Assembly: GCA_964444955.1 (NCBI GenBank)
Contig: CAYUJB010000003.1
Coordinates: forward strand, 1 to 57,723
DNA from: an uncultured Candidatus Saccharibacteria bacterium
GTDB taxonomy: Bacteria; Patescibacteriota; Minisyncoccia; 2-02-FULL-40-12; GWA2-44-9
DNA length: 57,723 bases
Reading direction: 5' to 3'
Under the pieces are notes generated by a model. That model had not been told where the DNA came from. It made no database searches and saw only the letters and a program-made list of their open reading frames with translations. The position numbers and the translations under genes are program-made. This document shows positions 46,664 to 57,723 of the stretch, piece after piece. Every line of letters begins with the position of its first letter. The first letter of the stretch is position 1.

Positions 46664-46679
46664 ACAAAGGGAAACTAGG

Positions 46680-46752
46680 TGGACCCTAGCAGGTTCGAAC
46701 TGCTGACCTCCTCATTGCAAATGAGGCGCTCTACCAGCTGAGCTAAGGGCCC
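46680..46752 (-). tRNA. tRNA-Ala(TGC)
   Basis: GGGCCCT/AGGGTCC acceptor with the G3:U70 pair; anticodon arm CCTCA-TTTGCAA-TGAGG. Confidence 0.97.
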
Positions 46753-46818
46753 GGGGAATCAATCTACGACCTCTGTCTTATAGGCACACGCGAGGAGTGC
46801 CGCGGGCATGCGACTAAG

Positions 46819-46890
46819 TGGGCGACGTAGGAATCGAACCTACGACCTCTGTCTTATCAGGACAGCGTTCTACCACTGAACTAGTCGCCC
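46819..46890 (-). tRNA. tRNA-Ile(GAT)
   Basis: GGGCGAC/GTCGCCC acceptor; anticodon arm CTGTC-CTGATAA-GACAG; GGTTCGATTCC T loop. Confidence 0.97.
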
Positions 46891-54946: not shown

Positions 54947-55456
54947 CTATCTGGCAATAGTGCCGACGCGAGCGCTGATCACATCGCGGAGTGCCTCCGG
55001 ATTGGCAATCTGATCGATGACAAACTCTTCTTGTGCACCCGCCGACTGCACCACGACGCTGCCGTATTTAAAAAGCGTCCCCACCACCCCCTGCACATGC
55101 GTGGTGATGTCCTGGACACGGTCCAGGCGAATGATGGAGATGTTGCGGTCAAAGAGTCGCTGGTAATCGATATCGATGATGCGCTTGGTGGTCACCACCC
55201 AGATGTCCATGTAGTAGGTGGTCCAAAACTGCCAGAAGATTGCCCACAACACCACTCCCCACAGCGACCAGAGCGTGAGTGTAGCGGCCCACGAGGGCGC
55301 CAGCGGCATGATAATGCCCACACGCACCAGAAGCTCAACGACAAGAATCGGAAGCAGCGCGAGAAAGAGTAGCCCAACGATACGTAGCGCAATAAAAAGC
55401 CAGTGCCGATGAACCTTGGTCACAATCTCCTCCCCTTCTTCCATGGGTAGATACAT
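54947..55456 (-). CDS. Bacterial PH-domain membrane protein
   Basis: HRHW, two TM segments, then WVVTTKRIIDI...RVQDIT...YGSVVVQSAG. Confidence 0.88.
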   Translation of the reverse strand: MYLPMEEGEEIVTKVHRHWLFIALRIVGLLFLALLPILVVELLVRVGIIMPLAPSWAATLTLWSLWGVVLWAIFWQFWTTYYMDIWVVTTKRIIDIDYQRLFDRNISIIRLDRVQDITTHVQGVVGTLFKYGSVVVQSAGAQEEFVIDQIANPEALRDVISARVGTIAR

Positions 55457-55465
55457 GGCGATGCT

Positions 55466-55753
55466 TTATGCAAACAATACTCCCAGCACGGAGAGCCCTA
55501 AAAATACGGCCAGACCAGCAACGTAGATGTACTCGGCACGATGAAAAATGTCGTGCTCGAAAGGAAATCGGCGCCAGTGATACACCAACACCACCGTGAC
55601 TGCAGCAATAAAAATCCCCACCAGAGAGGTGAGTACCACCAAGACAAGGGGCGAAATATCAATCGTGAGGGGTAGTGTCGCCCATGAACCTGCTAGATCA
55701 GAAAGACCCGCAGGAGCTATCGGTGGGATGTAGGGAGATGCGAGTGCAGCCAC
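55466..55753 (-). CDS. Small 2-TM hypothetical protein (probable leaderless GTG start)
   Basis: GTG lies exactly 6 nt after an extended -10 (TG-G-TATACT, 55760-55768). Confidence 0.6.
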   Translation of the reverse strand: MAALASPYIPPIAPAGLSDLAGSWATLPLTIDISPLVLVVLTSLVGIFIAAVTVVLVYHWRRFPFEHDIFHRAEYIYVAGLAVFLGLSVLGVLFA

Positions 55754-55773
55754 CTCCAAAGTATACCACACCC

Positions 55774-56009
55774 AAAAAAGGGCCCGGGGACGAATCCCCG
55801 GGCCGAACGACACGATCTATTGCGCACGACGCGCATGGGGGGGGCACTATGAACGGATCCCCAATCCTTCAGTGCAACGAAGCACGTTGCTGTACTGATG
55901 ATTATTCCGCCGTTGTCACCCCAACGGTAGGTCGGTGGTAATCGTACCACCCAGACGGGACAAAGCTCGATCAGAGCCAACGCACCTACGGGTCCCGCCG
56001 CCGAACAAC
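55774..56009 (-). ncRNA. Candidate structured non-coding RNA (about 235 nt)
   Basis: Extended -10 TGTGGTATACT at 56016-56026, dense hairpins, terminal stem ggcccgggga/tccccgggcc plus U6. No convincing ORF. Confidence 0.55.
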
Positions 56010-56025
56010 TCACCAAGTATACCAC

Positions 56026-56057
56026 AATAAAACCCCACCCAAAGGTGGAGTTTTATT
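56026..56057. terminator. Terminator downstream of 16S rRNA
   Basis: aataaaac(c)ccacc/ggtgg(a)gttttatt inverted repeat. Confidence 0.65.
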
Positions 56058-56266
56058 GTTTCTAATCTTACACAGTCAATTAGTTTCAGGGTATGTTTTA
56101 GTTCGATATACCATTAAGAACTCCGATTTCGCTGTCGGACCCAGCATAGCTCGTACGTCCAGAAATAATTAATTAATAATTATCAATTAAAACTTCCTGA
56201 CGTACACCCTATATCGACTTCTTTTACCTTTCCCAAACTTCTCTCTACGCGAAGTAGAAAGAATAG

Positions 56267-57723
<1,457 letters not shown>

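Follow-up and report, generated by a model that had tools for sequence, protein, structure and literature searches.

A candidate new family of structured small RNA genes, with its own promoter and terminator, in one genus of Patescibacteria

In a small Patescibacteria genome (~0.70 Mb in 22 contigs, 96 % complete), about 235 nt separate the terminator of the 16S rRNA gene from the promoter of a pair of membrane protein genes, and the question raised by this locus is whether that stretch encodes an RNA in its own right and, if so, whether it is a diverged copy of a known RNA, a leader of the genes that follow it or a remnant. The window, meaning here the whole stretch of DNA analysed, is 57,723 nt long, and the RNA gene and the neighbouring genes described below lie on its minus strand. 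An initial annotation had proposed a stand-alone non-coding RNA, possibly of a new class, and the Rfam, coding and covariation tests described here support that proposal. We consider it likely, on the comparative sequence evidence, that the locus is a stand-alone gene for a structured and untranslated small RNA that belongs to a previously uncatalogued family and is accessory in one genus of the ultra-small Patescibacteria; our verdict is that this is a new, narrowly distributed orphan sRNA family. The relatives compared carry differing NCBI labels (Paceibacterota, Saccharibacteria and Yanofskybacteria).

The mature 3' end of the 16S rRNA is GGAUCACCUCCUUUCU, at ~56265 on the minus strand, and is followed by a trailer of ~200 nt. 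The order on the minus strand is then a terminator hairpin, TGTGGTATACT, the ~235 nt RNA, a GC-rich terminator, a second TGTGGTATACT and a membrane protein gene. The intrinsic terminator of the 16S unit (56027-56050, found in a terminator scan) consists of a hairpin at 56048-56035 followed by a U-rich tail, and its stem is compensatory in a second member of the genus, G009, where CUCCACC/GGUGGGG is replaced by GCCGCC/GGCGGC, as it is in all of the genus members. The RNA gene occupies 55774-56010 (~235 nt, counted from the predicted start through the last base of the U-tract) and is matched over its full length by the R1 and R3 covariance models (7 sequences). Downstream of the RNA, and outside it, are two constant neighbours on the same strand. 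The first is the gene for a small membrane protein, here TM (55466-55753), which includes a conserved YHWRRFPFE motif, matches no Pfam family and probably starts at a leaderless GTG at 55753. The second encodes a bPH_2 (YdbS/YdbT-like) membrane protein (54947-55456; PF03703, E = 1.9e-7) and was found in 35 of the 62 genomes of the family. In every locus of the genus the TM gene is directly upstream of the bPH gene (tblastn). The YHWRRFPFE and bPH_2 proteins are always paired, and the pair directly follows the 16S rRNA gene throughout the genus and in a neighbouring genus.

The initial annotation placed the RNA next to 16S, and this part stands, as the 16S rRNA gene adjoins the RNA here and in most carriers. 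However, the conserved neighbour is the downstream TM/bPH pair. In the metagenome contig L043, the RNA, TM and bPH genes are together but the upstream neighbour is a gene for a coiled-coil protein and there is no 16S rRNA gene, and thus the stable association of the RNA is with the TM and bPH genes.

The 16S region has several further features. The rRNA genes are unlinked (window positions 46678-46890 and 56265-57723), with a terminator and protein genes after the 16S rRNA gene and no 23S rRNA gene in the window, and the usual spacer tRNAs, tRNA-Ile(GAU) and tRNA-Ala(UGC), are ~9.4 kb beyond 16S. The 16S rRNA gene includes a 441 nt insertion (window positions 56400-56840, minus strand) that is flanked by TTTGCACTCAC and TGCCCGTCA and falls in the decoding region, close to E. 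coli position 1400. The insertion contains no long ORF and matches no Rfam intron at gathering score; it is missing from G001, although the flanking 16S sequence there is almost identical. The Rfam SSU match extends only to 56794 and does not reach the true 3' end of the 16S rRNA, which is near 56265. Across the genus the 16S trailer (56060-56265, minus strand) shows very high conservation, as in GCUAUGCUGGGUCCGACAGCGAAAUCGGAGUUC and CUGAAACUAAUUGACUGUGUAAGAUUAGAAA, which exceeds that of the downstream RNA, and it probably forms one side of a processing stem between leader and trailer.

The RNA gene is preceded by an extended -10 promoter, TGTGGTATACT, at 56016-56026 on the minus strand, with a predicted start near 56010-56008. 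A second, identical TGTGGTATACT at 55760-55770, also on the minus strand, is the predicted promoter of the downstream membrane protein genes. A box of the form TGTGnTAnAnT precedes the RNA in all seven homologues, and an extended -10 box is likewise kept after the RNA terminator, before the TM gene, in 7/7. The intrinsic terminator of the RNA (55774-55804, minus strand) has a 10 bp GC stem (55804-55781) with a UUCG loop and a U6 tract at 55779-55774; it too is kept in all seven homologues, and it is the sole part of the RNA that survives in the genome G004. Hence, the promoter and the U6 terminator that had been assigned to the RNA (56026-56016 and 55804-55774), together with the separate promoter of the next gene (55770-55760), were all recovered. 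A simple two-hexamer -35/-10 scan found no promoter site at the RNA, where the -35 region is non-consensus, and the promoter is therefore called from the extended -10 element by itself. In a scan of the whole genome, the RNase P RNA match proved to have a TGTGnTAnAMT box (C15:2135) ~10 nt before it, and the same box precedes many genes, with an ATG 7-12 nt later (e.g. C1:40016, C2:18420, C3:36832 and C9:2629), which shows this box to be the usual predicted promoter of the organism. As the ATG is only 7-12 nt after many of the boxes, leaderless or near-leaderless mRNAs appear to be common in this genome. The 16S rRNA retains the full anti-Shine-Dalgarno tail despite the apparent frequency of leaderless mRNAs.

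A 102 aa ORF overlaps the RNA and its translation would contradict a non-coding role. However, the frame is open only in this genome, and no reading frame is conserved in the homologues. Relative to G009, substitutions are spread over the three codon positions of the frame (12/14/13), the indels are of 4, 1, 2, 1, 1 and 2 nt, and G009 includes at least two stop codons in every sense frame. The ORF also has no Pfam match, and on frame, substitution pattern, indels and the lack of a Pfam match a small protein gene was rejected.

Known RNA families were considered in the same way. With Rfam 15 at gathering thresholds, only the 16S rRNA and three tRNAs were found in the window, and at E<=10 the matches over the region of the RNA were limited to terminator-like ones, such as anti-hemB (24.6 bits), with the same outcome for five homologues. 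An Infernal search against Rfam, the first check recommended for this locus, thus yielded no family that reaches threshold for this copy or for the five homologues, and no known aptamer class was matched in Rfam by six homologues. ARAGORN reported nothing at the locus, and no RNase P RNA, tmRNA or 5S rRNA model matches there. The RNase P RNA and the tmRNA are located elsewhere, at C15:2155-2547 and C5:27995-28343, respectively, and the earlier statement that the RNA lacks the hallmark motifs of 5S, tmRNA, RNase P and SRP RNA agrees with the lack of a model match. The possibility that the RNA is a CsrA sponge was rejected, because no CsrA-like ORF was found in a motif scan, which is cruder than a profile search, and GGA is not enriched, the five GGA triplets in this copy (hand count) being about what its length and base composition predict.

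The SRP RNA needs separate treatment, as the RNA could be the missing SRP RNA of the organism, of the 4.5S or the large type, too diverged for Rfam to recognise. Searches with RF00169 and RF01854 were negative throughout the 41 and 25 genomes examined, the present one included, and a hidden SRP RNA was attractive while no SRP RNA model matched in the order. It was dropped once Ffh and FtsY proved to be absent from the searches. The search for an SRP54-type GTPase (Ffh, FtsY) came up empty for this genome, for 24 relatives and for 151 genomes sampled from the phylum, this one among them; PF00448 gave only P-loop noise of ~20 bits in the genome and the 24 relatives, and nothing at E<=1e-10 in the 151-genome sample. 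Motif scans of all ORFs of this genome revealed no DTAGR motif and no Ffh/FtsY-like P-loop protein, and the GxxGxGKTT proteins of the genome are only RuvB-, PilB-, TsaE- and ABC-like. These protein negatives come mainly from one search pipeline and from motif scans of this one genome; 14 of 14 control genomes gave a match. Since no Ffh was found, an SRP RNA is not expected. In addition, the RNA has no SRP match at E<=10, its sequence shows no helix 8 with a GNAR cap and the conserved symmetric loop, and it is patchily distributed within the genus. Hence, identity with the SRP RNA is close to refuted. The lineage itself appears, from these sequence searches, to have no SRP pathway, which is otherwise near-universal, unless this is an artefact of the search pipeline.

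The evidence that the RNA is a folded molecule comes from its homologues. The sole relative found with BLAST is in G009 (88 % identity over the 3' 185 nt). A covariance model made from this copy and that of G009 finds G001 and, with filters off at syntenic loci, adds G007 and G005 as well as the metagenome contigs L041 and L043, the E-values of these custom models being rough. The seven homologous sequences represent five species of one genus and two metagenome contigs, and include two close relatives. When they were aligned with guidance from the model, standard pairs made up 92-96 % of the pair cells. Of the 59 pairs in the full-length alignment, 36 have changes on both sides, versus 15 +/- 3 in shuffled controls and 4-11 in slid controls (the structure moved by 1-3 columns), and in the 5' domain the corresponding figures are 17 of 25 versus 8 +/- 2 and 2-5; as the alignments were fitted to the model and two of the seven sequences are close relatives, these main counts overstate independence. 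A plain MAFFT alignment analysed with RNAalifold, which was not fitted to the model, recovers two of the helices described below, P1 and P3, with 8/14 pairs compensated. The minus-strand reading includes at least 14 G-U cells that become A-C mismatches on the opposite strand, and the minus strand is therefore the folded one. The fold of the single sequence is unremarkable (z = -1.67; 10 of 200 shuffles fold as well). The collection of homologues and the test for covariation, both of which had been recommended, thus show that seven homologues keep the helices, with compensatory changes in every helix, and indicate that the predicted fold is under selection.

The conserved core is formed by the 5' ~100 nt, which include UCGGCG, helix P1 with its invariant CCCGYAG, the optional P1a, P2 and P3. 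P1 (GGCGGGAC/GUCCCGUC; 55999-55992 with 55961-55954, span 55954-55999, minus strand) is paired in 98 % of cells, with five of eight pairs changing on both sides, and encloses the unpaired CCCGYAG (55992-55986) and P1a. In the CCCGYAG loop, C13, C14, G15, A17 and G18 are invariant. P1a, a variable hairpin with the stem GGCUC/GAGCU (55978-55964, minus strand), differs in sequence in each of five homologues and is missing from G007 and G005. It is followed by the P2 hairpin (GGUGGUA/UACCACC with a CGAU loop; 55934-55951, minus strand), where each of the six modelled pairs shows a change on both sides and the paired cells amount to 97.5 %, and by the P3 hairpin (CCGUUG/CAACGG; 55910-55927, minus strand), in which every cell is paired (100 %) and three of six pairs change on both sides. 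P3 carries a purine-rich, Shine-Dalgarno-like loop of six bases, GGGUGA, followed by CGG. The loop variants found are GGGUGA, CGGAGU, AGGAGU, GGGAGG and AGCGAU, and CGG is usually next. The P3 loop was rejected as a real ribosome-binding site, there being no start codon 5-10 nt downstream in any homologue.

The stretch from P4 to the terminator is variable, and the 3' half diverges fast. P4 is a long interrupted hairpin (CGGA/UCCG, AAUC/GAUU, UCAG/CUGA and GCAACG/CGUUGC; 55854-55909, minus strand) that includes helices 5-7 of the model, with 83-90 % of cells paired and, in the five sequences that can be aligned over it, two-sided changes at 11 of 18 pairs; in G001 and L041 its place is taken by a hairpin that is built differently. 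P5, helix 8 of the model, is a small hairpin in the variable 3' region (UGCGC/GCGCA with a GUCGU loop; 55821-55835, minus strand), and in the other homologues a different hairpin is found at about the same position. The helices listed in the initial annotation, namely P1 with GCUC/GAGC, GGUGGUA/UACCACC, CCGUUG/CAACGG, the long stem and UGCGC/GCGCA, are all present where it located them. Two of its tertiary features did not hold up. The proposed pseudoknot GUAGGU/ACCUAC exists only in this genome, the sequence being GAAGUU in G009, GCAGUU in G001 and GCAGUA in L043, and the C run that G-rich loops were said to face is C8 here (55844-55837), is CCCAUU in the nearest relative, G009, and is not conserved. 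A helix between the 5' end and the sequence before the terminator can be drawn in five of seven sequences, but is only 4-5 bp long with a shifting register and was omitted from the fold.

This fold also bears on the 6S RNA, which acts by open-promoter mimicry to bind the RNA polymerase holoenzyme, and of which the RNA might be a highly diverged form specific to the lineage. RF00013 is undetected in this genome, both over the region (gathering threshold and E<=10) and genome-wide, and in 30 relatives, and the size and strong promoter of the RNA would suit an abundant stable RNA. However, the RF00013 model detects a 6S RNA in only five of the 14 control genomes and its failure elsewhere says little. 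The fold supported by covariation consists of local hairpins (P1, with a span of 46 nt, P2, P3 and P4) rather than a rod closed at the ends with a central bubble, and the end-to-end helix is 4-5 bp at best and inconsistent across the homologues. The RNA is also lacking in around half the genus and elsewhere in the order, which would be unexpected for 6S. On fold and distribution a 6S RNA was rejected, and we give this identity hardly any credence.

When the 5'-domain model R3, built from all seven sequences, was used to survey the order, the RNA was found in five of the 12 species of the genus (G000, G001, G005, G007 and G009) and in none of the 93 other genomes. The syntenic site is empty in G002, G003, G006, G010 and also in G033, which is from another genus, and only the terminator remnant is present in G004. 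At the empty sites, the 16S terminator and a single promoter box abut the TM gene directly, whereas in carriers a block composed of the RNA, its terminator and a promoter is interposed. In a tree of the neighbouring bPH protein, which is short and leaves several nodes weak, the carriers fall on three branches, including the deepest (G005), with the non-carriers interleaved. The simplest history is probably that the RNA was present in the ancestor of the genus and was then lost at least four times, and the losses may have occurred via recombination between the duplicated promoter boxes. Deletion in at least four lineages makes the RNA accessory rather than housekeeping. It is present in a single copy, with no paralogue in its own genome. 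No relative was found in phages, plasmids or IMG/VR, where pattern matches to viral contigs did not exceed 19.5 bits, and an origin from a mobile element or phage was rejected on these grounds.

A 44 aa ORF with a CxxC...CxxC pattern, MSFIRGVAHAIRCWWLMRCRKCDTPLRDWARHSSCMVCPKCDLV in G001 (L010, 1330-1464), lies between the 16S terminator and the RNA site with its own promoter, TGTGCTATGCT, and belongs to no Pfam family. It is found at the equivalent place in G004 (L014), a sister species of G001, where the remaining RNA terminator sits behind it. The slot between the 16S rRNA and TM genes seems to collect small cassettes.

A history of repeated loss, together with the partial deletion of the copy in G004, the fast divergence of the 3' half and the promoter duplicated on both sides like the scar of an insertion or duplication, raises the question of whether the locus is a decaying, functionless remnant of an old gene, intron or mobile cassette with hairpins that arise by chance or from a GC-rich composition. 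This is improbable, as the promoter and terminator are intact in 7/7 copies when the neighbouring protein is only 53-80 % identical across the lineages, the compensatory changes that preserve the structure in every helix imply selection on the fold, and unpaired bases are invariant. Nor is there any similarity to a mobile element, phage or plasmid among the sequences searched.

Alternatively, the RNA could be a cis-regulatory leader of the TM/bPH operon, either a riboswitch or a protein-responsive attenuator, in which the 5' domain would sense a signal and the terminator would stop or read through. The RNA is always directly upstream of the TM-bPH pair and on the same strand, even in L043, and the 5' domain is aptamer-like in its covarying stems and fixed junction bases. 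However, a complete promoter separates the terminator from the TM gene in all seven homologues, and in the half of the genus that is without the RNA the same genes run from a single promoter. The downstream mRNA is apparently leaderless, which would leave no UTR to regulate. The terminator, with its 10 bp GC stem, is very stable, and inspection, though not exhaustive, revealed no conserved antiterminator, the only candidate being the unconserved C run. We therefore regard a leader as a poor explanation of the locus.

Hence, a stand-alone gene for a small RNA remains the preferred reading, and the following course of events would account for it. The gene would date from the ancestor of one Patescibacteria genus or from an earlier time, with the promoter duplicated on both sides. 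Transcription would begin at its own extended -10 promoter and end at its own strong intrinsic terminator, and the product would not be translated. This RNA would comprise a conserved 5' domain of ~100 nt (the P1 loop with CCCGYAG, P2 and P3) and a fast-evolving 3' part made up of P4, the small hairpin and the terminator, and would act in trans as a binding platform with the CCCGYAG bulge and the Shine-Dalgarno-like P3 loop as its contacts. As the helices covary while the bases of the loop and junction stay fixed, recognition of shape, and with it a trans-acting binding platform, is the most likely mode of action. A trans-acting RNA that binds through the CCCGYAG bulge and the P3 loop is our best guess at the mechanism, made with low confidence.

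If the RNA is real, the chance that it uses the CCCGYAG bulge and the P3 loop to bind a protein or the 30S subunit is in our estimate not far short of even, and the conservation pattern points to a binder of protein or ribosome more than to a classic seed-pairing sRNA. Under the same proviso, regulation of mRNAs by base-pairing is a lesser possibility, and a search for antisense targets in its own genome (blastn, word size 7) found only chance-level complementarity. That the RNA does something else, or has no function, is rather unlikely, and cis control of the downstream genes by terminator read-through is doubtful.

Where binding to a protein or the 30S subunit is concerned, pairing with the 3' tail of the 16S rRNA is an unlikely specific form of it. 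The P3 loop with its closing pair can form 7, 7, 4, 6, 6, 7 and 4 contiguous pairs with this tail in the seven homologues. Six or more contiguous pairs are found for 3.7 % of random 8-mers versus five of the seven P3 loops, which represent three loop sequences and two registers, share ancestry and hence are not independent samples; the other two are no better than chance. A stricter proposal is that the RNA is a Shine-Dalgarno mimic, in which the 16S 3' tail on the free 30S subunit would be paired by the exposed P3 loop (GGGGUGA, GAGGAGU or GGGGAGG), with the 5' domain keeping the loop in place, and to this we assign only a slight chance. If it were true, the RNA would shift the balance between Shine-Dalgarno-led and leaderless initiation, or escort the 16S 3' end in maturation, and the adjacency of the gene to 16S in most carriers could be explained.

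Comparison with known systems identifies partial likenesses. The RNA is like the raiA motif RNA, also called ModT (RF03072; PMC11706538), in that it is stand-alone, ~200 nt long and composed of several helices, with its own promoter and terminator and fixed junction bases. Both lie beside translation-related loci, and raiA RNA was for long without an assigned function. However, the two share no sequence or model similarity, and while raiA RNA is conserved across two phyla, in >2,500 species (PMC11706538), the RNA described here is dispensable and found only in part of one genus. With 6S RNA (RF00013) it shares a similar size, the character of an abundant type of RNA, independent transcription (here predicted) and, presumably, action by being bound, though it has local hairpins and a patchy range where 6S is an end-closed rod with a central bubble. 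OLE RNA, with its partners OapA/B/C, is likewise a structured RNA whose gene directly precedes, in the same orientation, genes for small membrane proteins. However, OLE is ~600 nt, its partner genes are always with it and it is co-transcribed with its neighbours, whereas here many relatives have the membrane protein pair but no RNA, and a promoter stands between the RNA and the pair; there is no sequence similarity. Finally, purine-rich, GGA-containing hairpin loops, here including that of the terminator, recall the CsrB/RsmZ sponges, but no CsrA-like protein was found by motif scan and only one loop is consistently purine-rich.

To our knowledge, almost no regulatory RNAs have been experimentally described from the candidate phyla radiation, and the literature searched held nothing relevant on Patescibacteria sRNAs or on loss of SRP. 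If expressed, the RNA would add one more uncatalogued structured RNA family from this radiation. The narrow range and dispensability limit its general impact, and it fills no missing housekeeping role. It has a defined fold, a covariance model ready for use and, in the same genus, natural "knock-outs" in species that have cleanly lost it, and it offers a tractable example of the birth and loss of an RNA gene in tiny genomes via a promoter-flanked cassette. Should the Shine-Dalgarno-like loop or the link to the TM and bPH genes prove functional, it may also provide a handle on translation or membrane biology in these organisms.
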